Of a stretch of 64,000 bases of DNA, positions 3,972 through 49,358 are shown piece after piece (within the stretch, counting starts at the first letter, position 1; every line of letters begins with the position of its first letter). The stretch is taken from contig NC_087250.1 in NCBI RefSeq assembly GCF_037042905.1, positions 4,838,001-4,902,000 of the forward strand, in the 5' to 3' direction. This DNA is from Lytechinus pictus. Lineage: Eukaryota. A program made the position numbers and the translations under genes. Under the pieces are notes generated by a model. The model made no database searches. It worked only from the letters and a program-made list of their open reading frames with translations, and was not told the origin of the DNA.

Positions 3972-4428
3972 GTGAAAAGTTTGTTGTAGAAATAGCAGAA
4001 AAAATCATTTAAAAAAATACATATTGATGAATTAAGGTTTGAGAAAAATCAATTAGAGTTTTTTGTGACGTCATAAATGAGCAGATGCCTCAAATGTTAT
4101 TTGTATTATATATAAATTGCACAAATTTCCTTTTATTAATGGTTATTGATCACTCATTTTCTTATTTTATTTTCAGGAGCTGGTGTGAAATGATCAGCGT
4201 ATTGATACACTGAAGGTGTAATAAACACCAATTTCAATTTTCTGAGAAAAATGAAATTTCATTGATTTTTTTACCATACGATATGTAGGAAAGCTGCTCG
4301 CATATGACGTCACAAATGAAACAATTAACATTCTAATAATTTGTTTGTTCTTTGATGGATTCCTCTCAAACTGCAAATATTTGTTTATTATTTTTACAAT
4401 AAACGTTTTGTAAAGGCAAACCTCCCCT
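3972..4428. mobile_element. TTAA-target MITE, 46581 family, partial
   Basis: Shares the AAATAGCAGAAAAA...TTTGTGACGTCATA and GCTGCTCG...TGACGTCACAAA blocks; ends CCTCCCCT|TTAA. Confidence 0.7.
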
Positions 4429-29863: not shown

Positions 29864-30409
29864 CCCGGGGGGGGGGGGCACTCAGTATATAATGCATAGT
29901 GGGTATGTGCCGCGGAGGGGACCCCCATTTTTACACTCAAATTTCCGTTCCAAAGCATAGCATTTTTGTCTTTTTGAGAAAAAGAACAAAGAAAGCCGCT
30001 CCAAGGCATAGCATTTCCTTCTTATCGAGAAAAAAGAAGAAAGAAATCCGTTCCAAAGCTTTGCATATTTTTCGTTACGCCGTTCCGGTCGCATTGACTT
30101 GCTACAAGGAGCTGCAATTTGGTGAAAAGCGGCCGTAGAGCGCTTTTCGACCATCGCCTAAGCGAGAGCGCACCCGGCGGAGGCCGCGCTAGCTGCGTCA
30201 TGCACGATTGCCCGTTCCATAGGGATGCATACGCACTCACAGAGATACGGAGATCCGTTCCGAGGACCCCCGTTTTCACAAACATTTGTTGTTCCGAAGC
30301 CCGTTCCGAGGACCCTCCTTTTTACAATAAGCCCGCTCCAAGGCCCCCGTTTTTTGCCTCGCCCGCGGCACACCCCTACCACTTTTTTGGTCGAGTGCCC
30401 CCCCCCGGG
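29864..30409. mobile_element. MITE with CCCGGGGG termini and 8-bp TSD
   Basis: CCCG(G)nCACTC...GAGTG(C)nGGG; exact TSD CATCATGA; internal CCGTTCC/CCGCTCC subrepeats; GC-rich. Confidence 0.85.
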
Positions 30410-30992
30410 CATCATGAGAAGGCTACACTAACACGTGTGTGAATATATGGGACTGCATCTGTGTGAGGATATTATTTGACGCCTGATAAATGCATAGTAA
30501 ACTATTTTGATGAAAGACGATCGGTATCGCTTTGCGTGTGCCCCCCCCCCCCCCAAGAACAGCAGATATATCATTCCTTAACATAATTGTAGTGACTATA
30601 ATCTTGGCGAGCCGCTATTTTCCAAGTCATCGAAGTTTTCGTGGTATTCCAACCACCCGGATTTTCGGCTGATGACAGGATCAGATATCTGACTTCGATC
30701 CGACGGTCCAAAAAGATGTCTCATTCCAACGGTGTTGTCATGAGACTCTGATGCCCTTGAGCAGCTTCGCATTTCACAATAAATATCATATTTCGAAGAA
30801 TATTTGTCATACACATGCATCGTTGGATATGTTGGACTGCGGACGGTAGAAAGGAGGAGAGGTAGATCTGATCTCACAGACGATCAGACTTTTGCCACTG
30901 GCAAATCTTCGACAAAATAGATAAAATATGAATAGGAGCTGAATGTTTAATACCCAGAACTGTTCAAGTGTTTCTTCAATTGCAGATGAGCC

Positions 30993-31037
30993 ATGGATGA
31001 AGAAATAACCCTAATCAAACCAGTTGAACCTAAGGAG
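30993..31037 (+). CDS. Probable first coding exon (MDEEITLIKPVEPKE), likely of the Cys-rich small protein gene
   Basis: Acceptor TTTCTTCAATTGCAG ends 30985; GCCATGG Kozak context with an in-frame TGA just upstream; donor GAG|GTAAGC at 31038. It ends in phase 0 while the 39363 exon starts in phase 2, so a linking exon is needed and was not firmly identified. Confidence 0.5.
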
Positions 31038-31071
31038 GTAAGCAGAAGTCGCTCCCGGCCTATACGATTAA

Positions 31072-31484
31072 GGCCACGGGGCCACCGCACCGCACACCTC
31101 GATTACGATTGGTCTGCGATCAATAGAATTTGACGCTCATACTGAAGCATGGAATATCTTACTGTGTAATGTTCTAAATCATCGTACGAAAACCTATGTT
31201 CAAATCTGTGACTATCCTATCATCCTTATTATAATAAAATCGAATTTAATAGCAAGTCGTAATGACGTCATAGCAATCATACGATTGGCTTAAGTGAAAC
31301 TAATTTGCCCTTTACTAAAAAAAAAATGGCTTGCAATCATCCAAAATTGTTATATTAGTATTATTTAAGTTAATTTCATACCTCAAATAAAAAGATACTT
31401 TTCATTCACATTTTCAGAAAATAAGCAAAATGGAATTTGTTCCAAAATCGGATGGTGGACCAGTCGTAAGGTGTGCGGTGACCT
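31072..31484. mobile_element. Harbinger-like MITE
   Basis: GGCCACCGCAC...ACGATTGGTC / GACCAGTCGTAAGGTGTGCGGTGACC inverted ends; left end locally duplicated. Confidence 0.6.
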
Positions 31485-31814
31485 ATATCATGTTTATACG
31501 TATATGCTTTTATATAAATCAGTAGAAAAAAGTGGCCGGCTGTACTTGTGCAGCAGTACGTATAGCGCCGAGCTGCAGGGGTGCTAATAGTTTAATACTA
31601 AATGGTGATTCCATTCAATTTACTTCAATGTCGACTAATTGTATGCATGCAATAGTCCGGAAATTGATAATGAAAAATGTACAAAAAATGATTGGCATTC
31701 ATAGATTTTACCTGACATTAATATAAAAAAGATATATAGTTGACTTGAAACATTGATGATCAAGATTTCAGTATTAAGATCTGTACTAGTAGTAGTATAG
31801 TAGTAGTATAGTAG

Positions 31815-33125
31815 TGAAAGGGTTCGCGCCGACGACCACACAACACAGACACGAGGGCTGAGGCTTCTTGAGTTCTTTTATTGATCAAAGAAAAACAGCC
31901 TCTGTATAACAAAATATAAACAAGCACATGATTAATATAATTACCACACATTACATAATAGCGGTATGAATTACATAATAGCGGTATGAAAAGTAGTACA
32001 GTTCTAAACATACAAATACAGATTTACATTATCAATCAAGGCAATAAACTACATTTTCTTCAGTGACTATTAAAGACAAAGTAAGTCAAGAAGTATATCT
32101 CTTTCATTATTAGATATAAAATCGTATCGACAATATTTTTGTATTCAGAAAACCATAATTTGCATCTATATGATATAAGTTAAACAACTCTACCTAGACC
32201 ATGCACTCACCGGTCAGAACACTAATTCTGCATTTGTTTTCAACATTTCCAGCCTAAGTACATGAAGGGAAGTCCTTGCAGAAGACCTACGGGTATAACA
32301 TAAACATTGATGTATGTCACTTACATTATACACAACCATATTAAGCAATACATAACTATGGGAACATTAGATTTAGTATTTGGTCTATCGACACTGACTT
32401 TTTATTCGTTTCTTTTACTTAAGGCTGTGCAAGAATCTTCCTATCAAAATGAACATTATACATGTAGCAATTGGTAATGCAATGTAAATATAGAATATAA
32501 CAGTCAAAGTGAACTCAGGCACATATCAGATCACTATCAGGTGAGCTTTCTGTCCAATCAAATATCATTCCAAAATTGAGTAATTATAATAACATGCATA
32601 CATATACATATATCACAGTAATAGTATAACATATCAATGAAATAAACATTCAATTTACTAAAATAAGAGTATATATATACATCAACTTACTTATATACTG
32701 CAAAATTAAACTTTCTTCTGCAGGAACAAGTATCCTCATCAACAACAAACAGTAGGAATGCCCTTGCTACTGCCAGTGTCATGAGTCACTGGACTCTCTC
32801 CCTAGCTAACAATAAGAGTGCAATGGTGCACATCAAAGTACAAAAGCATCCCTAAAGGGTGTACATGAATTGGCATTACTGCTACTCCTAAAAAGGCGGG
32901 AAAGAATTAGCCAATGAGCAGAGAGGGAAGGATTAAGGCAAAGTTGGTATAACTTCAGAGAGGGAGAAAGAGTACTAAAGATAAAGTTGGCAGATATAAT
33001 GTGAAATATAGATTTATTATATACATTATATTCAAATGCTACATGTCCTTGAAATGAAATAATAAAATATAGTATCCTTTTAACTAGATTTTTAAATTAA
33101 TAAAAGGAAAACCCAATTTACAACA
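31815..33125 (-). mobile_element. Probable solo LTR (Gypsy-like) inserted in an (AGT)n microsatellite
   Basis: Minus strand reads TGTTG...TTTCA with AATAAA about 60 nt before the 3' end and a GT-rich U5-like stretch; 4-bp flanks GTAG/GTAG (weak evidence because they lie in a microsatellite); AGT repeats on both sides. Confidence 0.6.
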
Positions 33126-33131
33126 GTAGTA

Positions 33132-33164
<33 letters not shown>

Positions 33165-33244
33165 AAGTAGTAGTAGTAGCAGCAGCAGCAGCAACATATA
33201 TCCGTAGTTGTAATAGCAGTAGTAGTAATATAGTAGTAGTAGTA

Positions 33245-33288
<44 letters not shown>

Positions 33289-33412
33289 AAGTAGTACAAG
33301 AAGAAGTAGTAGTAGTAGTAGTAGCAGCAGTAGTAGTAGTAGTAGCAGTAGCAGCAGCAGCAACATACATCAGGAGTTGTAATAGCAGTAGTAGTAATAT
33401 AGTAGTAGTAGT

Positions 33413-33463
<51 letters not shown>

Positions 33464-33501
33464 TAGTAGTATAGTAGTAGTAGTAAAGTAGTACAAGAAG
33501 A

Positions 33502-33536
<35 letters not shown>

Positions 33537-33647
33537 CAGCAGTAGTAGTAGTAGCAGTAGAAGTATTATTATTATTAGTAGTAGTAGTAGTAGTAGTAGT
33601 AGCAGCAGTAGTAGTAGTAGCAGTAGAAGTAGTAGTATTATTATTAT

Positions 33648-33680
<33 letters not shown>

Positions 33681-33728
33681 CAGCAGTAGTAGTAGTAGCA
33701 GTAGAAGTAGTAGTATTATTATTATTAT

Positions 33729-33761
<33 letters not shown>

Positions 33762-33896
33762 CAGCAGTAGTAGTAGTAGCAGTAGAAGTAGTAGTATTAT
33801 TATTATTATTATTAGTAGTAGTAGTAGTAGTAGTAGTAGTAGCAGCAGTAGTAGTAGTAGCAGTAGAAGTAGTAGTATTATTATTATTATTATTAT

Positions 33897-33929
<33 letters not shown>

Positions 33930-34057
33930 CAGCAGTAGTAGTAGTAGCAGTAGAAGTAGTAGTATTATTATTATTAGTTGAAGTAGTAGTAGTAGTAGTA
34001 GTAGTAGCAGCAGTAGTAGTAGTAGCAGTAGAAGTAGTAGTATTATTATTATTAGTT

Positions 34058-34102
<45 letters not shown>

Positions 34103-34120
34103 TTATTATTATTATTAGTT

Positions 34121-34154
<34 letters not shown>

Positions 34155-34235
34155 CAGCAGTAGTAGTAGTAGCAGTAGTAGTAGTAGTATTATTATTATT
34201 AGTTGTAGTAGTAGTAGTAGTAGTAGTAGTAGTAT
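33126..34235. repeat. 1.1-kb compound (AGT)n/(AGC)/(ATT) microsatellite with higher-order ~60-bp period
   Basis: Directly visible: (AGT)n-AGCAGC-(AGT)4-AGCAGTAGA-(AGT)n-(ATT)n repeated about ten times. Confidence 0.95.
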
Positions 34236-34274
34236 AGCAGTATGGCATTTTTATATTGCCATTGTCATCAAATA

Positions 34275-35082
34275 CAGTGCGTCCCACAAAAAACGAAACC
34301 AAGATTTATCGATGATTTATCATAACTTAATCACAAATATAACAGACAAATGACCCACCATTGTAAAGCATAGAATCTCCTCTTTCATCTGAAATTACTT
34401 AAATTATTTCTCATTTACGCATGAGTGAGCAAAAACAATTTGAATAGGGTATACCAAAAAGTCATTTGGCGGGCTGTATCTGGGTTTCAAAACGAAAAAC
34501 CACATTTTTAAAAAGTTCAATATCTGTTCTCAATTACAGAAAATGGTCAAGAAATAACACAGTTCTGGTTATTTGAAATAAGTCTTGAATTCCAATAATT
34601 TCATAAAATGGAGAGGTTTTACAGGCTAGCGTTCAAACTCACTCGACACTCCGTTTTGTTGACGATCAGCCATGCATTAAGTCTTTTTTTAACCGTGCGA
34701 TAACTTCTGTAGGAAACCGGTGAAAACACGTTCATTTAATAAAATTATGGAAATACAAGCATTGTTTCGAGGGAGCATAACTTTTTTACTTCTGGACCAT
34801 TTTTTGTGATTAAGGTATCAAATGAAACTAGCAGATATTGAACTTTTTTAAAATGTGATTTTCTTTTTGAAATTCAGATACCCCCCGCCAAATGAGTTTT
34901 TGGTATCCTTTCTTCAAATTGTTTTTGCTCACTCATGCGTGAATGAGGAATAATCTAAGTAATATCAGATGAAAGAGGAGATTCTAAGCTTTACATTGAT
35001 AGGTCATTTGTCTATTGTATTTATGATTAAGTTATGATAAATCATCGCTAAATCTCGGTTTCGTTTTTTGTGGGACGCACTG
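34275..35082. mobile_element. Tc1/mariner-like foldback MITE, copy 2
   Basis: Same termini, TA TSD and core as 26342, same orientation. Confidence 0.9.
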
Positions 35083-35220
35083 TATATTGGTATTTCTTAA
35101 TTCATAATTGCCATTTTTATCCCCTTCATCATCTGATAATATATTTTTTCTCATCATCATTGTTATTTTCAATTTTATCACCAAACAGTTTTCATTACGA
35201 TTCTCATACTTTGACGTCCG

Positions 35221-37201
35221 GGGGCGGTATTCTGAAAACGTTCTTATCTTAATTTTGTTCTTATCTACGTCACGTTCTCAAATTGGTATTCTGAAAACGT
35301 TCTTATCTTTTTCTTATCTTTTGTTCTTATCTTTTTCTTATCTTGCTTTCCATCGATGCTGAGCGCGTAAATTTATAATTCGCGCATATGATACAAAAGC
35401 GCGCTAAAAGATAAGAACAAAATAAAGATAAGTGGTATTCTGAAAACGTTCTTATCTTTTTTCTTTCTTATCTATTTACGAAATTTATGATAATATTTAA
35501 GATAGCTAGAGGGTTATTACATCTTACGCTGTCCGCCTTCTTTCTTGCTAAAAATCGATGGCCACTGGTAGTAACAAGTATTCATCCCACCCTTTCTTTC
35601 ATTCACCCTTTATTTTGCCTGTCTCTTTTTTCTATCCCTTTTTTCTTTCTTTCTTTCTTTCGTCCTTCCTTTCGTTCTGTCTTTCTTTATTTCATTTAGG
35701 CCTATTTATTTTCTCTTTTTCTTCCTTTCTATCTGTTTGTCTTTTTTTCCTTTCTTTCATTCTTCTTTTTTTTCCCTTTTTTGAATCTTTTAACTTCTTC
35801 CTTATTTTTCTTTTGCGTTATTTTATTTATTCTTTCTTTTTCTTTTTTTAATTGAATTTATTTCCGTTAAAAACCAATAACATAAATACATATGAAATGA
35901 TACATGTGAATTGATAAATGAAAAACGGGAGGATGACCTAGCTCAGCAGCATCAATCATGGTGCTGCTGGTCTACCGGGGTCCTTCCTTTTTTATTTTCC
36001 CTTTTCGATTTTTTCCTTTTTTTCTTTACTAAGTTTTTTTTTCTTTCCCATTTTCTCTCTTTCTTTCTGTTTTTCTTTTCCTTTCTTCCTTCACTTTATT
36101 TATTTTTTGTAATCTTTTTATTTCTTCATTTTTTAGGGTAAATTATATTTCATTTTTTCTTTATTCTTTCCATTGATCTTTCTTCGTTTTTCTTCATTTT
36201 TCCTGCCTTGTTATTTTCCTTCTTTTTCTTTCCTTCTTTGAATTTACCTTTCTTTTTATCTTTATTTAGTTTTCAATTTTGCTTTACTTTTCCTTTCATC
36301 TTTTATCTTCCCTCTCTTATCTCTTTCTTTCTTTCTCTCCCTCTCTTTCTTTATTTCTTTGTTTCATTTTCCCTTTTTCTCTCTTCCGTCACTTTTTACA
36401 TATTTTTATTCCTTCCTTTTTTTTGCTTTCTTTCATTCGTTTTTTCTAACTTTTTTTTGTTCTTTATTCCTTCATTTTATCCTTTTTAATCTTTTTATTT
36501 TGTACTTTTTCGTTTTTTCCTATAAGTTTTTTTTCCTTTTCCTTCTTTATTTTTCCTTCAATGTTTTATTCCTCTTTTTATCATTGATTATCATTCTATC
36601 TATTCCTCCTTTTTCTTTCTTGTATTCTTTCCTTTTTTTATTTCTTTTCATTTTTTAAAATTTTCTTTTAATTTCCTTTTGCTTGCTTTCTTTCGTTTAC
36701 CTTTTCTTTCTTTCATTGTTTTCTGCATTTTGTTAAATTTCTGTTTCATTCTGACCCTTTTCTGTATTCTTACTTACCTACTTACTTTACTTCTTTCTTC
36801 CTGTTTTATTCTTATTCGTAACTGCTTCCTTTACCTTTTTTTCTTTAATTTCTTTCTTTCTTTATTTTGTGCACATGTCTCGAAATAATAATCACTCATT
36901 GCGTATAAAATGCCTATTTCGCGCAGTGCGCAAGAAACAGTGCACGCGCAGCGCCCATGATATTCTCTTCACATAAGGAACGCTTTTATTGGTTAAACTG
37001 CCAATATAAAGCGCATTTTGATTGGTAATATCTTAAAAATGGGCGTGTTGAAGATAAGAAGGAGGCAGTCCTTACAGAGATAAGAACGCGTTAAGAAGAT
37101 TTTCAGAATACCGATTTGCAATGATTTTAGCGTCTTCTTATCTCATTGAGATAAGAACAAAGATAAGAACAAAGATAAGAGCGTTTTCAGAATACCACCC
37201 C
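35221..37201. mobile_element. Harbinger-like MITE split by a long pyrimidine tract
   Basis: GGGGCGGTATTCTGAAAACG...CGTTTTCAGAATACCACCCC TIRs; many TTCTTATCT/AGATAAGAA subterminal repeats. Confidence 0.75.
35580..36870. repeat. ~1.3-kb T/C-rich low-complexity tract
   Basis: Extreme pyrimidine skew with decayed (TTTC)n; interrupted at ~35850-35985. Confidence 0.9.
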
Positions 37202-37369
37202 AGGTGAGCATGTTGTTAAATACAGAGTTTTCATACAGCTACGCAGAACACTTTCAAGAACATAGAAAATTCATTTTCAAATGCCCTCCATGACAATAAG
37301 CAACCAAGAGGTCTTTGTCGAAAATTGGTGATCATAACGGCAGTGTCGTCCTGGATTCTTGACAAACGA

Positions 37370-37580
37370 TATATTTCGGCGAAGTACATCTGTCGAATCA
37401 TTTAAAAGACATCTGAAAACATACTTATTTTTGTTGTAAGTGTAATTGTAACACATGGAGAGTAATTTATGTAAAGCGCATGGAACAGTTTTAATTGATT
37501 ATGCGCTGAATAAGCACTAATTTATTATCATTTTTTAATTATTATTATTATTGTTGTTATTATTATCATCATTGTTATTA

Positions 37581-37616
<36 letters not shown>
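37370..37616 (+). mobile_element. L2-clade LINE 3' remnant with (ATT)n tail
   Basis: STSVESFKRHLKTYLF peptide, AGCGCAT...ATGCGCT terminal stem, then ATT repeats. Confidence 0.7.
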
Positions 37617-37618
<2 letters not shown>

Positions 37619-38859
37619 CCTCCTAGCAGTTCAGTGTCTTTTGACGGGCATTTTCAATACATCGACGGTGTTTTTTGATACGCACCTGAACGCGGAACTG
37701 TTTTGAAACCTGGCACTATTGCCTTCATAGGGCTGATCACCGAAAGCAGCGGAGGGAGAAAACCAGGAAGGAAGGGGGGTTGGGGCGGTGATGAAAATGC
37801 ATAAGATATTTTTTTATAGTTATTTCCACATATTTTGTACCCTTTTTTTACTGAAAAAGATGCCCTTACAGGTTTCACGACCCCTATTAAATACACTCAT
37901 GGGAAGGTTCCATTCGAGATTGAGAATTCGACTTTAATAATCATTGAAATAAACATTCACAAAAATGCACGCGCGCACCTAATATCTACTTGTCATGTCC
38001 GCTCCAAGTTGACAGCAAGTTTATATGAATACATTGAGAAAAATCAAAGAGGCATATATGCAACACTGAAAATAATCAAAATAGGATTCCAATAAAGAAA
38101 TTAGACGTCATCACTTTTTTTACATCCAATTTTAATTGAATTTTCAGTCTTGCTCTTGTTTAATCTTTCTTAGTCTATTCTATAAACTTGGTTTAGGGTT
38201 AGGGTTGATCGACCTTTTAAAGGTTGTTCGAAACTAAACTTATACATCATGTTTCAAAAGCATTTTTTAGTTCTCAATACATCAGGAATTATTGAATGAC
38301 GATTCGGTTCCGACAATATGACAGACTTTTCGCATTTTGAAAAGACTGTTTTCTGCTTGAGTTTGCTTCCTTTGCCTATATTTATTCTGTTTATCACAAA
38401 TTCAAGCAGAGATGAGCAGGATGATGTTCTTAAAATTAATCGGATATTATCATAAAACTGTCAAAGATATTCTCTAATAAAATTACGCCTACTTCCACAC
38501 AAACAAGCTGAATATTATCGAGCATGTCGAGGTGGATATAATCCTTTTTTTTCCTTTTTTTTTCTAGCCTTTATGTTATGCTTATTCATTTTATTAGCAG
38601 ACTTAGTTATGAACCCACAAAAATGTAAACGTTAATCCATAAGATGACAAAATTTTATTGGTGACATTTTAGTACAAAAACAAAAACAAGAGGTGGTTTT
38701 AGACCAGGGAGAATACCAGGAATACTATTTTTGTCATTACCACTTCTGTTTTTTAACTAACTTTCGAACGACTGACAAGAAACATTAAAAAGTTTCGATC
38801 GAAAGATTGGTTTGTTCATCACCAAATCTTTGAAGTGTATAACAGCAATCATTGTAAGA

Positions 38860-39360
38860 TGCATTATTTTTCACTATATCACCTCTCCAAAGCAACCTTA
38901 GTAACAGTCATTATTTGTCACTAAATCACGTCTCGGACGCAACCATAGTATCACCTCTCATAAACAACCATACTAACGGTCATTATTTTTCACTATTTAT
39001 CACATCTGAAGCAACCATAGTAACAGTCGTTTTTTTTTTTCACCTCTCCGAAGGAACCATAGCAACAGTCATTTTCACTCTCTCACCTCTCGAAAACAAT
39101 CATAGTAGCTGTCAATATTTTTTTTTTTACTATTTCACCTGTCCGAAGCAACCATTACGTTGTGCAAACCCTTCACTATAGTAAAGGGTATGAGTGTGCC
39201 CTGTGCAGCCTATAATGTTTCGTGTATACAAGAGGCCCTCTATATGTGCTAGTCTTTGCCTGGAGACCCACTTGTTGATCAAAGTTTCAATCCGGGTCTG
39301 TGTCTGCAGACTACATAGTAACGGTAGTTATTTTTCACTATTCCACTCCTCCGAATGCAC
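38860..39360. repeat. Degenerate ~46-bp tandem repeat upstream of the Cys-rich exon
   Basis: Recurring TTATTTTTCACTA..CACCTCTCCGAAGCAACCATAGTAACAGTCA units. Confidence 0.8.
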
Positions 39361-39362
39361 AG

Positions 39363-39501
39363 CACTCATAGGACGGATGACCGATGTGCAAATTGGGATT
39401 GCCATGGTGATGGTGAATGCACGGAGGTTCTCTTCGGATGTCTTCTGTGCCATTGTCTGTTCGGAGGCGACTCGAACGACTCCTGCAACGATTGTTGCCC
39501 G
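39363..39501 (+). CDS. Cys/Asp-rich small protein, internal exon (THRTDDRCANWDCHGDGECTEVLFGCLLCHCLFGGDSNDSCNDCCP)
   Basis: CAG acceptor ends 39362; open frame with 9 Cys in 46 codons; strong donor CCG|GTAAGA at 39502 (phase 0) matches the next exon; elevated GC. An in-frame ATG at 39355 is an alternative start. Confidence 0.7.
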
Positions 39502-39794
39502 GTAAGACTGTGCTAATGCCCGAATTATTTAACTTAAGTCTTAGACAATGATCTGACATTGTGCTAAAATTATGAGAAGCCGTATAAATATATTATTTTC
39601 AATGTCTTATATTTAATTTGCCCTTCCCGCTTGCTTTAAATGGTCACGGAAAATATTTAAGTTATCACCAGACAACTGTGAATGATTTGAATGTCACCTG
39701 CACTGTTAGATATCTGTGTGTCACGATTAGCTATCCATAGGTAGTATACCAAAGCCCTAGTTCAGTACATAAGGGTTAGTTTAATTATTTAGAG

Positions 39795-40090
39795 GAATCT
39801 CCCTACTGTCAGTGACGTCACATCGGGGACTGCTTCGCCTGATCGAATCTCGTGCACTTTCGGTGACGTCACTTTGGGGACGTACTGTTTGCCTAATGGG
39901 ATGGCCCTGTCGGTAACACCATACCCATGATACCAGGATCTGCTTCGCCTGATTAGATCTCACTGTCAGTGACGTCATATCAGGGACAGCTTCTCTTGAT
40001 GGGATCTTACTGTCAGTGACGTCACATCAGAGATTGCCTTATCTAATGGGATCTTACTGTCAGTGACGTCACATCAGGGACTGCTTCCTA
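39795..40090. repeat. ~47-51 bp tandem repeat (six units) containing CRE palindromes
   Basis: TGACGTCA at 39813, 39864, 39970, 40017 and 40064; one degenerate unit near 39910. Confidence 0.9.
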
Positions 40091-40419
40091 GTATGTTTTA
40101 CAAACCATTCACTCCAGTTAAGTGTCCTGAATGCGCATACTACAATAACTTGTGTACAGATAAGGCACTCTCGCTAGTTTTATATTTGCGAGTATTTATG
40201 TTTCAGTATCATACAAAATGCTAGTCATGTTTATGAACATTATCGCTCTAAACTTTAAAAAGATTTTTTTTTTTAAATAAGAAGAAAAAAAAAACGGGTC
40301 AGGTAAACGATGAAACTGGATCTGTTGGAGACACACACTATTCCGGGTATGAAATAACCAGGATAACTTTTTGTGTGACTTACTGTGGTTTCTTTTTTGT
40401 CTTTGATCGATTCATCCAG

Positions 40420-40506
40420 GCATGCGACTGCAAGGACTGTGGCGACTGCGACTGTGGGAATTGCGATTGTGGAGACTGCGGGAATTGCGACTGTAACTTC
40501 AGCTAG
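40420..40506 (+). CDS. Cys/Asp-rich small protein, last coding exon (ACDCKDCGDCDCGNCDCGDCGNCDCNFS*)
   Basis: T-rich tract and CCAG acceptor end 40419 (phase 0); 10 Cys in 28 aa; repeat units vary at synonymous positions (TGC/TGT, GAC/GAT, GGC/GGG/GGA); TAG stop at 40504-40506. Confidence 0.75.
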   Translation, partial: ACDCKDCGDCDCGNCDCGDCGNCDCNFS

Positions 40507-40843
40507 TCTTCGACACCAGCTGCCTGGGCAGGTCGTGAAAGGTGCTAGATGAATGATATAAACGACAGCTATCCAGGATCAGGACTGGCGAGAAGGACAA
40601 AGAAACTGTTTTTCGACAAAGACCTCCTAGGTTTTCATTTTGCCTGCTAGGGTTGATTCCGCGTAGTTGAGCGAAAACACGCTATTATCATGATTATATG
40701 GACAACAGCTCGAATGACCACATGGACCACAGCCGAGAAGAAAATATGCTGATCACCACAGATCACACCAGTTTGATCTGCTTCGAGTTTGAGCAGAAGA
40801 TATAGATCAATAAACGTAGAGGGCGCGCGTCATGAATGACCTG

Positions 40844-40988
40844 GGGCCCGTTGCAGAAAGAGTTGCGTTTAAACGCAAGCCAAAAAATCAATCGCAAGTC
40901 CCAAATGCACGCTGTTGATTGGTTGAATATCAAGTTGCGCGTGATTTTTAGAGTTGCGATTGATTGCAACTCTTTCTGCAACGGGCCC
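40844..40988. mobile_element. Harbinger-like short MITE in the putative 3' UTR of the Cys-rich gene
   Basis: GGGCCCGTTGCAGAAAGAGTTGC...GCAACTCTTTCTGCAACGGGCCC with CWG flanks. Confidence 0.8.
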
Positions 40989-42009
40989 CAGACCAGTGGG
41001 GCATACAAATGCGACTTATTTTGCCTACATGTATATCGAAATTTTATTCATGGCCAGCGATAGCCGATGATAATAATTTCCAATCGATGCACCTCACTGA
41101 TTTATCAAACAAAATTCATGATACACACTCTTTTCAGTTTGGTTCTGAAGAGTATACAGCTGTATCGCATATTGCATCTTCAAGTCTTTTGCTCCATATA
41201 GAAGCTGCAAATCGATAGCAAAAATAAATAAATAGATAATGTTCTCAATAATTAGACCTCACTGTTTATATGTTACGAAGTTTATTGCAAATGTTACTTT
41301 GAGTAATTATGCAATGTGAAGTTCAGAGAACTATCAAGTAATTTAATAGGCCATTGGGCTGTTGGTATGAAACAAATACCCCTCCCCCTTTTTGTGTACG
41401 TTAGGGATGCTGAATTAAATGAAACGTTTATTAATATATTCGTGTTTGTAACAAAAGTAATTCTATTTTTATATCACCTGTACAATAATGTTCGGAAATA
41501 TTACTAAGTATGAGGCTATATTGCATTATTATAAACAATTTTTTTTTACCTGAAAGCTGAAAATACACTTTTATCAACAGGCCTATATAATATATTTATG
41601 TTTGCATGAAAATACTATGTTGTTCTATTTTTGCGAGCAGCTGTGTGAAATAAGTATGAAAGTAAATTATTATCATTGCAGTTTAATTTAGTTTTAAGGG
41701 GCATCCAGTTGCCTTTGCCTCAAGAATTTGTGTGTCTTGAAATATTGGTGTATTATATTAGCAATATATATATTTCATTTTTTGTATCATACCAGTTTTG
41801 TCTGTATAAAATATCAAACGATACACTGTGTTGAAATTCACTTCCAAAATTTATGATATAAATGAGATCTGTAAAATCAGCTGGTAGAAAATGACACCGT
41901 TCAGATCATTTTCATGGCACTTACATAACAAGCGTCGAGATTTGATAAACAAAACCAACCCCAACCTTAGGTACAAAAATGTTTTTCTTCATCTAAAGCT
42001 AGTATTGTA

Positions 42010-48022: not shown

Positions 48023-48841
48023 TTAATGAGGGATGTTAATAATAACTGGAGACTTTTAATTCTATGGACACCCATGCATTCTTCCTTCAAAATGCAATAT
48101 TAGATTTAATGCGATTTATAATTTCAGTTACACTCAGAACTCCTTTATGTAATTAGATCGGTCATAAGGAAAATCTTGGTGTAATTTAATCTATTAGTTC
48201 AGTTCAGTTCAGTTCAGTTCAACTTATTCAATTCCAATATTAAAAACATTTAATAACACATTGGATAAAAAATGCAATTCAAGATAAAATAAAGTAGTTC
48301 AATGGTATGTACATGCATATTGAATAGAAAAAGTATTGAAATTAGGTATAGCTGTAAAAAACCATAAAGGTCTTGTCAAGACAGCTCCCTTAATAACATA
48401 AGATTTGATCAATTAATAAAAGCGGAGAACAATTCAGTAAATATTCAGTAAATAAAAATGAATTGCGTCTTACACCAAGACAAACCCAGAACAAACATAC
48501 ATGTAAAGGGTAGAAGAGAATGAAAAGCAGAGGGGGGGGGGGGATTGAGAGTGAAAAGAAGACAAAAATCATTTAAAATTCAACGAGAGTCATGTTTGAT
48601 CAAATATAGCTTTACATTGTGCTTAAATCTGTTATAAAATGAAATTGAGGTTATACATGTAGGGAGTATTGAATGCATAAAAAAAATTATCTACTCTTTG
48701 TATAATATCTTTGTATGTTCATATTTTTTGTAAACGTGTATATTTCAGCGACTGGCTGCCAATCCTGTATTGCCAATAAACGATTACTATTCTATTATTC
48801 TATTCATACCATTCAATTTGTTTTCATTGCTTTCTCTGTAG

Positions 48842-49358
48842 ATTGCTATCACTCCTGGGTACAGTGTTTGGCTTTGTTGCATCTGACATGAAACACAAAT
48901 GCAACATCATCGACGGCCATCGAGAAGACCATCCTGAGGAATTCACCACCGTCCAGACTATGATCGATTACGAGATGCGGGAGAATCTCACGGCGCGGAA
49001 GGACGAGAAAGGGCGCGACAGCGGCTGCCGGACCTTCCTCCGACTTCACAGAGCGCTCGAGTTCTTCTGCGTCCTCCTCAAACGGCTGAAACCCGCCAAG
49101 GGGACGGACCCAACGTCGACTCTCACGTCGAAAACGTACGGGGAGACGCTGGGGAAGTACCACCCGTGGTTCGTGCGGCAGATGGCGTACCTCGCGATCA
49201 AGACATTGCCGAACAAGCAGCAGCTCATTCATCGTTATTGTTTGCAAGACGCGGAGGAAGCGCAGGCGTTGGTTATACTCTCGCTTCAAGCGATGGAGGT
49301 GGTCTACGACAAAACGCAGGATATCTTGGCGCACCACGATCTACTCAATTTACCATAA
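48842..49358 (+). CDS. CPTP: Ceramide-1-phosphate transfer protein (GLTP domain), coding exon 2
   Basis: Polypyrimidine tract and TAG acceptor ending 48841; phase matches exon 1 (AG+A=Arg). Contains LGTVFGFVASDMKHK, SGCRTFLRLHRAL, YHPW and C-terminal LLNLP, typical of CPTP/GLTPD1/ACD11. GC-rich coding composition against AT-rich flanks. Confidence 0.95.

Follow-up and report, generated by a model that had tools for sequence, protein, structure and literature searches.

Classical metallothioneins consist to about 30% of cysteine, which is arranged in CxC and CxxC motifs, and they are generally free of aromatic residues. The CYSTM proteins of yeast are reported to be bound to the plasma membrane by palmitoylation and not by a transmembrane helix, and relatives of these proteins have been linked to metal tolerance (PMC10840359). 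Members of the CYSTM/CYSPD class include yeast Cpp1-3 and the plant proteins CDT1 and PCC1 (PMC10840359, PMC2804304). For MDFI, MDFIC and MDFIC2, the carriers of the I-mfa domain, a palmitoylated Cys-rich C-terminal helix has been described that resides at the bilayer interface (PMC13080014). The present study concerns a gene of the sea urchin Lytechinus pictus whose predicted product invites comparison with each of these systems. The gene is located on the forward strand of a 64-kb stretch of contig NC_087250.1 (positions 4,838,001 to 4,902,000), here called the window, which provides the numbering of all positions and which is AT-rich (30-41% G+C) and contains many microsatellites and dispersed repeats. 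Judged from sequence comparison, two exons of this window, termed exon A and exon B, almost certainly make up the 3'-terminal coding part of a genuine, conserved gene, as its penultimate and its final coding exon. The explanation that accounts best for our data, and which we consider quite probable, describes a gene restricted to sea urchins, which RefSeq has already predicted as a protein of 132 to 143 residues and for whose tail we propose a role in lipid attachment or metal binding. What is new is that this assembly is without the most conserved exon of the gene.

The preliminary description of the window had claimed two exons with good splice signals and matching phase, and its coordinates, frames and translations were all reproduced in our analysis, with both junctions being canonical. 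Exon A is preceded by a pyrimidine tract followed by the acceptor cacAG|C and it ends with the donor CCG|GTAAGA in phase 0, and the acceptor of exon B combines a good pyrimidine tract with a CAG (...TTCATCCAG|GCATGC). When joined in frame, both exons encode 74 residues, among them 19 Cys, a count that was returned equally by scripted joining, 14 Asp, 9 Gly and 6 Asn, with the acidic residues Asp and Glu amounting to 16 and the basic residues Lys and Arg to 3. The upstream start that had been assigned to the gene is substantiated by a real coding exon (exon 1), whose 15 residues agree in 14 positions with the N-terminal sequence of the L. pictus models, P0011 among them, and whose donor is GAG|GTAAGC. 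It had also been remarked that the gene escapes the track of open reading frames, which is plausible, since the stop-to-stop frames measure only 62 and 84 residues, with little upstream of the exons.

Our main argument for a real and constrained coding sequence is its conservation across genera. A phmmer search with exon A alone against 1.84 billion representative proteins (E ≤ 0.001) provided four matches, two of which are true relatives, namely P0005 (143 residues, 98% identical to exon A, E 2e-22) and P0007 (122 residues, 65% identical to exon A, E 1.2e-4). The remaining two, P0006 with 1028 and P0008 with 3052 residues, match exon A in only 14-25 residues and turned out to be unrelated on reading. 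An exact-sequence look-up defined a first cluster of four RefSeq models of 143 residues each, two from L. pictus and two from Lytechinus variegatus, and a second cluster contains three models from Strongylocentrotus purpuratus (Table 1). The 74 residues encoded by exons A and B are identical throughout to residues 70-143 of the L. pictus model P0011, where exon A accounts for residues 70-115 and exon B for residues 116-143, and they show 72 identities to P0005 and 71 to each of the L. variegatus models P0009 and P0010. The S. purpuratus protein P0012 (132 residues) is 68% identical overall and contains the same exon A/B junction, and the junction 39501^40420 is thus shared by RefSeq models of three sea-urchin species. 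In an alignment of five sequences (A2), from which the truncated S. purpuratus models were left out and which was complemented by a separate alignment of seven sequences, the invariant residues include C77, C82, C88, C95, C98, C100, C110, C113, C117, C119, C122, C135, C138, C140 and F142, and 14 Cys are kept between Lytechinus and Strongylocentrotus. Neutral DNA would not be expected to hold protein identity at this level between these genera.

The same observations bear on the alternative that the frames are open by chance and that there is no gene. Such a view could draw on the absence of RNA depth on the exons in the mapped runs and on the nature of the tail, which is encoded by low-complexity DNA with a 15-nucleotide (nt) repeat, but it is at odds with the complete identity of the 74 residues to a predicted protein and with the canonical splice signals at both junctions. 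With frame, junction and 14 Cys being preserved between Lytechinus and Strongylocentrotus, it is in practice refuted by the cross-genus conservation, and we consider its probability to be negligible. The proposal of a genuine spliced protein-coding gene has thus been borne out. In contrast, the gene is not hidden as had been assumed, since standard eukaryotic annotation already predicts the family in the models of Table 1, and the 74 residues of the preliminary description represent no more than the C-terminal half of the 143-residue product.

Table 1. Location of features of the locus in the window and RefSeq models of the protein family.
Feature	Position	Strand	Remarks
Possible acceptor (start of the span in the preliminary description)	30985|30986	+	would imply a further non-coding exon upstream
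Exon 1 (first coding exon)	30993..31037	+	15 residues, Met at 30993; tblastn of P0005 (30993-31040)
Interval exon 1 to exon A	31038..39362	+	8.3 kb; expected site of the conserved second coding exon
Exon A (penultimate coding exon)	39363..39501	+	first base completes a Ser codon; 46 full codons from 39364
Intron between exons A and B	39502..40419	+	918 nt, GT...AG
Exon B, coding part	40420..40506	+	28 residues, 11 Cys, then TAG (40504-40506); 15-nt repeat at 40435-40480
Probable 3' untranslated region (UTR)	40507..40830	+	first AATAAA at 40809 (poly(A) signal scan)
L. pictus models			XP_054757411.1 'uncharacterized protein LOC129263530'; XP_054756943.1 (P0011) 'outer dense fiber protein 1-like'
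L. variegatus models (P0009, P0010)			XP_041467121.1, XP_041467067.1; LOC121417467, LOC121417425
S. purpuratus models (second cluster)			XP_030848567.1, XP_030848568.1, XP_011683223.1; LOC105447170, LOC105447166, LOC105447167

Outside these models the family has few recognizable members. A profile search of a 5.8-billion set yielded three matches among 509 candidates, all of them urchin-like, with the European Nucleotide Archive (ENA) fragment P0014 as the sole addition, and no longer forms of the family scored at E ≤ 1 among 4130 candidates. Within the reach of the searches run, the family hence seems restricted to sea urchins. In the whole assembly, which comprises 811.7 Mb in 368 contigs, exon A and exon 1 were each found as a single copy and no paralogues were detected. 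RefSeq lists two loci each for L. pictus (P0005/P0011) and L. variegatus (P0009/P0010), the members of a pair differing by a few residues, and these may either be recent duplicates or two retained haplotypes. In the literature searched we found no mention of the six LOC numbers of the family. The existence of the gene was already known from RefSeq pipelines in three urchin species.

The statement of the preliminary description that the protein cannot be assigned to a known family is upheld by searches of Pfam, the Protein Data Bank (PDB) and the Atlas. Pfam provided no family at its cut-off on four exon peptides, and on five full-length orthologues searched at E ≤ 10 there was no match to the MDFI model PF15316, to CYSTM or to metallothioneins, and none that reached the cut-off. 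A search of all PDB chains with the A2 profile gave no matches at E ≤ 10, and a comparison of residues 70-143 with the named clusters of the Atlas gave no usable match. For the whole protein, the best value in the Atlas was 0.84, for a cluster of giant-virus hypothetical proteins of 85 residues, and the second best 0.76, for a cluster carrying the name CYSTM, both of which are leads only. A match of the N-terminal half of P0011 to CopC (E 0.077, 14.5 bits against a cut-off of 23.3) was discarded as a chance match. We have similarly rejected an identity with outer dense fiber protein 1, as implied by the name of XP_054756943.1. That protein is characterized by a small heat-shock or alpha-crystallin-type domain and no Pfam domain was found at cut-off on P0011; the 'outer dense fiber protein 1-like' name probably reflects the Cys-rich composition only.

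The predicted protein is divided into parts of distinct character. Its N-terminal half is acidic and contains the invariant block KKRSNMVGRGEY. Since no obvious signal peptide is discernible by eye, we assume a cytosolic location. Within the Cys-rich half, constraint is strongest at residues 90-104, where three invariant Cys are placed among Leu and Phe, and this region includes an invariant hydrophobic Cys-bearing stretch of 13 residues (VLFGCLLCHCLFG, residues 91-103). The mean hydropathy of this stretch is 2.19, compared to only 1.18 over the best 19 residues, and it is too short to span a lipid bilayer. The second part of the C-terminal module is an acidic CxC/CxxC tail that differs in length from one species to another.

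This organization resembles that of the CYSTM/CYSPD proteins, which are small (60-150 residues) and combine an N-terminal part free of Cys with a short hydrophobic segment that is rich in Cys and lies close to the C-terminus (PMC10840359, PMC2804304). In the urchin protein, however, the hydrophobic stretch at positions 91-103 of 143 is followed by 40 acidic Cys-rich residues and it is thus not terminal. Although a resemblance to CYSTM-type tails had been suggested at the outset, it is not supported by any CYSTM match among the five orthologues at the permissive threshold described above. Since CYSTM and MDFI-family precedents show the same layout working, we favour an S-acylated anchor. In the proposed mechanism, the LLC.C.F segment would be multiply S-acylated to serve as an anchor at the membrane surface, and the acidic CxC/CxxC tail would either bind soft metal ions or become further acylated. 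By analogy to these systems, an S-acylated membrane association appears about as probable as not, with a slight lean against it, and metal-thiolate binding by the tail is a tentative proposal that we consider possible, while expecting it to fail somewhat more often than to hold.

The relationship to the I-mfa proteins deserves separate consideration. The urchin protein might be a very distant homologue of MDFI, MDFIC or MDFIC2 that controls a partner protein, for instance a PIEZO channel, via a palmitoylated Cys-rich C-terminus. Both share a C-terminal region that is rich in Cys and includes a hydrophobic Cys-bearing stretch, which in MDFI-family proteins forms a palmitoylated helix (PMC13080014), and the likeness, which is one of style only, extends to acidic CxDC motifs and to a terminus in which a Cys is followed by two residues and a small polar one. 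In contrast to this similarity, the urchin module is the shorter one and has a tail that consists of a simple repeat, and neither profile nor PDB searches returned a match. PF15316 did not match the orthologues or the separate exons, and in a six-frame search of the genome the model found nothing within the window and a single match on another contig (L003, 18.7 bits against a cut-off of 27, E 0.63), which contains a stop, does not resemble a gene and looks spurious. Equally, no PDB chain was detected even though a PIEZO1-MDFIC complex is reported to be deposited as 8IMZ (PMC13080014), and the Atlas had nothing usable to offer for residues 70-143. We also found no relevant paper that treats I-mfa together with sea urchin in the literature searched. 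The resemblance to the I-mfa domain that had been noted in the sequence has thus not been confirmed, and we regard homology to this family as very doubtful.

The main functional rival to a membrane-anchored protein is a soluble metallothionein-like metal-thiolate domain without lipid anchor, with a role in the buffering or detoxification of Zn, Cu or Cd. It is suggested by the density of Cys, whose share is 26% in the 74 residues and reaches 39% in the last 28, and by their arrangement in CxC and CxxC motifs with many Asp, Gly and Asn between them. It would also suit an apparently cytosolic location, where free thiols would need a ligand. Still, with 11 Cys in 28 residues, the tail is part of a protein that contains the conserved aromatic residues W80, F93, F102 and F142 and an LLC.C.F block, all of which are invariant or kept. 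These features, together with an N-terminal half of 69 residues that is devoid of Cys clusters and has no counterpart in metallothioneins, would be unusual for a classical member of this class, and no metallothionein family of Pfam was matched at E ≤ 10. We thus consider this explanation to be unlikely.

Returning to the anchored and possibly metal-binding protein that we prefer, its interest lies in the combination of traits found in a lineage-restricted protein, which resembles lipidated Cys-rich tails as well as metal-thiolate domains and which matched none of the profiles of outside families that were run. If it were S-acylated or metal-binding, it would provide an independent animal example of such a design, and this in a model organism that is routinely subjected to knock-down and to metal exposure.

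Several of our results weigh against a conserved gene with a functional lipid- or metal-binding tail, and they concern its function, its tail, its expression and the integrity of the locus. The functional and family proposals, which have been derived from sequence features, find no support in any family match. A model predicted by AlphaFold from the alignment of five sequences was unusable, with a mean predicted local distance difference test (pLDDT) score of 34.8, a predicted template modelling (pTM) score of 0.18 and every residue below 50; its sole sizeable element is a helix at residues 88-102, which is of low confidence and would be the only counterpart to the palmitoylated C-terminal helix with which I-mfa proteins bind partners such as PIEZO or the MyoD family. 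The tail comprises 28 residues in Lytechinus and 19, thus 9 fewer, in the S. purpuratus protein P0012, and in P0013 its place is taken by a 6-residue ending. It may thus be dispensable. To this adds a scan of metagenomes seeded on the motifs DCGNCDC and EVEVTT[DN]G, in which 512 pattern matches were reduced to six loci that passed tblastn. Five of these six loci were read (L009 was left out), and all of them match the tail alone. Two loci, L010 and L011, encode one and the same bacterial protein, which starts with a signal peptide and ends in a PEP-CTERM-like tail, the latter named by eye, and another (L012) encodes a protein with a PLAC8 domain and XYPPX repeats. When compared to P0011 in BLASTP, the metagenome proteins align over 20-28 residues of the repeat at 67-84% identity or in gapped alignments that are driven by composition. 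The runs of the CDCGNCDCG type are near-identical between these (D/N)CG(D/N)C-repeat proteins and the urchin tail, whereas the rest of each protein is unrelated. As this repeat occurs in otherwise unrelated proteins, it has arisen more than once and it provides no evidence of kinship. From these comparisons, the CDCG tail is best described as a labile and recurrent element of low complexity, which is found in unrelated bacterial and protist proteins and which carries little specific information.

One further metagenome contig (L008, 4542-5093) contains a frame of 183 residues that is laid out like the urchin protein, in that an N-terminal part rich in Ser and Thr is followed first by a short hydrophobic segment with Cys and then by a long tail of the CDCG type. 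BLASTP aligns the tail alone with the urchin protein, and Pfam found nothing above noise in this frame. Small proteins of a similar layout may be widespread by convergence.

The variation within the urchin tail and at its end was used as an argument in the preliminary description. In exon B, Tandem Repeats Finder (TRF) identifies an array with a period of 15 nt, 3.1 copies and 77% matches. The three DCG[DN]C units differ at four sites, three of which are silent third positions, with the fourth causing a change from Asp to Asn. Third positions are thus variable in 3 of 5 cases and other positions in 1 of 10, for which a hand-calculated one-sided Fisher test gives p ~0.08. The argument from synonymous variation in the repeat is hence correct in its direction, with three of the four variable sites being silent, but it is weak. 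The proposed prenylation signal at the C-terminus has fared less well. In a CaaX box, a Cys at position -4 is followed by aliphatic residues at -3 and -2 and by a last residue that determines specificity. The last four residues are CNFS in the four Lytechinus models, CDFN in P0012 and ELLS in P0013. CNFS and CDFN have no more in common than Cys at -4 and Phe at -2, position -3 being either Asn or Asp, which does not agree with a conserved CaaX box. Prenylation of the last four residues thus appears improbable.

With respect to expression, none of the sequencing runs listed as containing this sequence is recorded as RNA. Three raw RNA runs (X21, X22 and X24), of which 6, 6 and 25 in 100 parts were read, and one contig set (X1), which is only guessed to be RNA, were mapped on positions 37700-42000 at 90% likeness. 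In none of the four did we observe the joint 39501^40420, and the depth on both exons is essentially nil, so that the result is uninformative in either direction and the junction that had been put forward is neither supported nor contradicted by it. In the bin 39428-39571, which contains exon A, the depth ranges from 0 to 1.2, and in the bin of exon B it is 0 in X21 and X22, 1 in X24 and 2.79 in X1. In this last set, a contig of 219 nt covers positions 40419-40627 and thus exon B and part of the 3' UTR, and its first nine letters, which precede 40419, are unplaced. This layout fits a spliced transcript that uses the acceptor of exon B, with the nine letters not being readable and the RNA nature of X1 a guess. 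A high depth was found in all four mapped runs at 39243-39313 and 40841-40991, on either side of the exons. Both regions are covered on both strands, with many loose ends and back-joints and at 90-95% identity, and we assign them to dispersed short repeats because of the involvement of both strands and the loose ends. Their signal could be misread as transcription of the gene.

The most pronounced deviation of the locus concerns its second coding exon. Relatives of the protein carry about 54 residues (16-69) between the parts encoded by exon 1 and exon A, which contain the invariant blocks QPIPEDPSE and KKRSNMVGRGEY and which in the ENA fragment P0014, from another urchin, are encoded by one continuous exon. 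In the window, tblastn with P0005 and P0007 at E ≤ 10 recovered exons 1, A and B only. When confined to positions 30001-40600, a search with the middle part at E ≤ 2000 returned only noise, and a six-frame scan for all of its four-residue words gave no match on the plus strand between 31040 and 39361. A six-frame search of the whole assembly was empty at E ≤ 10, and two fully degenerate patterns for the invariant blocks, with one and two mismatches allowed, had zero matches assembly-wide, while in a positive control a like pattern for exon A recovered exactly its single site. The middle exon with its KKRSNMVGRGEY block was thus found neither at this locus nor elsewhere in the assembly. Because exon A requires two bases from upstream, which exon 1 with its end in phase 0 does not supply, joining both directly yields CAC TCA TAG and hits a stop after two codons. 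In absence of the second exon, the locus as assembled can therefore not make the protein of 143 residues, and it may be a null allele or the product of misassembly.

These findings lead to the suggestion that the locus is a broken copy, in which the second coding exon was lost, either in a deletion allele or by an error of the assembly, and the Cys-rich exons stayed behind as intact-looking remnants that yield no full protein. The failure to find residues 16-69 in window and assembly despite a working control, their confinement to one continuous exon in P0014, the stop in the direct join and the lack of RNA depth on exon A all agree with this suggestion. It has to be reconciled with exons 1, A and B, which are intact, near-identical to the L. 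pictus models and equipped with preserved splice sites, and from which we conclude that any loss of an exon would have to be very recent, polymorphic or artefactual. Moreover, the window contains no N and hence no visible gap, and an in-frame ATG at 39355, shortly 5' of the acceptor of exon A, could in principle start a product of 77 residues, although, judged by eye, it lies in a poor context and no evidence points to its use. On balance, we consider a broken copy to be slightly more probable than not. The interval in which the exon is expected also holds an imperfect (AGT)n array of 1.1 kb at 33125-34242, to which TRF assigns about 376 copies, with runs of ATT among them, and a CT-rich low-complexity region of about 1.6 kb at 35300-36900. 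Be it due to an error of the assembly or to a structural null allele in the sequenced animal, the missing exon is of practical relevance for anyone annotating or using the gene from this assembly. In its most far-reaching form, the anchored protein that we favour would be the founder of a sea-urchin-specific class at the membrane surface, with an LLC.C.F segment that is multiply S-acylated in the manner of the CYSPD and I-mfa helices, an acidic CxC tail that holds metal at the membrane and, in addition, a natural allele that is without the KKRSNMVGRGEY exon. This combination is rather unlikely; if true, a ready-made knockout would segregate in a laboratory urchin species.

The intron between exons A and B contains a tandem repeat with a period of about 47 bp at 39940-40087, the units of which include the palindrome TGACGTCA, and five TGACGTCA sites are located between 39813 and 40064. 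This palindrome, the core of the cyclic-AMP-response element, is found at 14 sites in the whole window compared to 0.66 expected from base composition, with other sites being paired at 4066/4305, 17959/18267, 20519/20910 and 21340/21685, a pairing that suggests a dispersed element. A search of the genome DNA with the region of the TGACGTCA repeat (39790-40090), by a method that skips common words, returned only the locus itself. A Pfam scan was carried out on 14 of the 27 frames of the window with at least 110 residues, the other 13 being left out as low-complexity or overlapping. An open frame of 192 residues at 48780-49358 on the plus strand contains a glycolipid transfer protein domain (PF08718, E 6.7e-38) and is probably an exon of a neighbouring gene.

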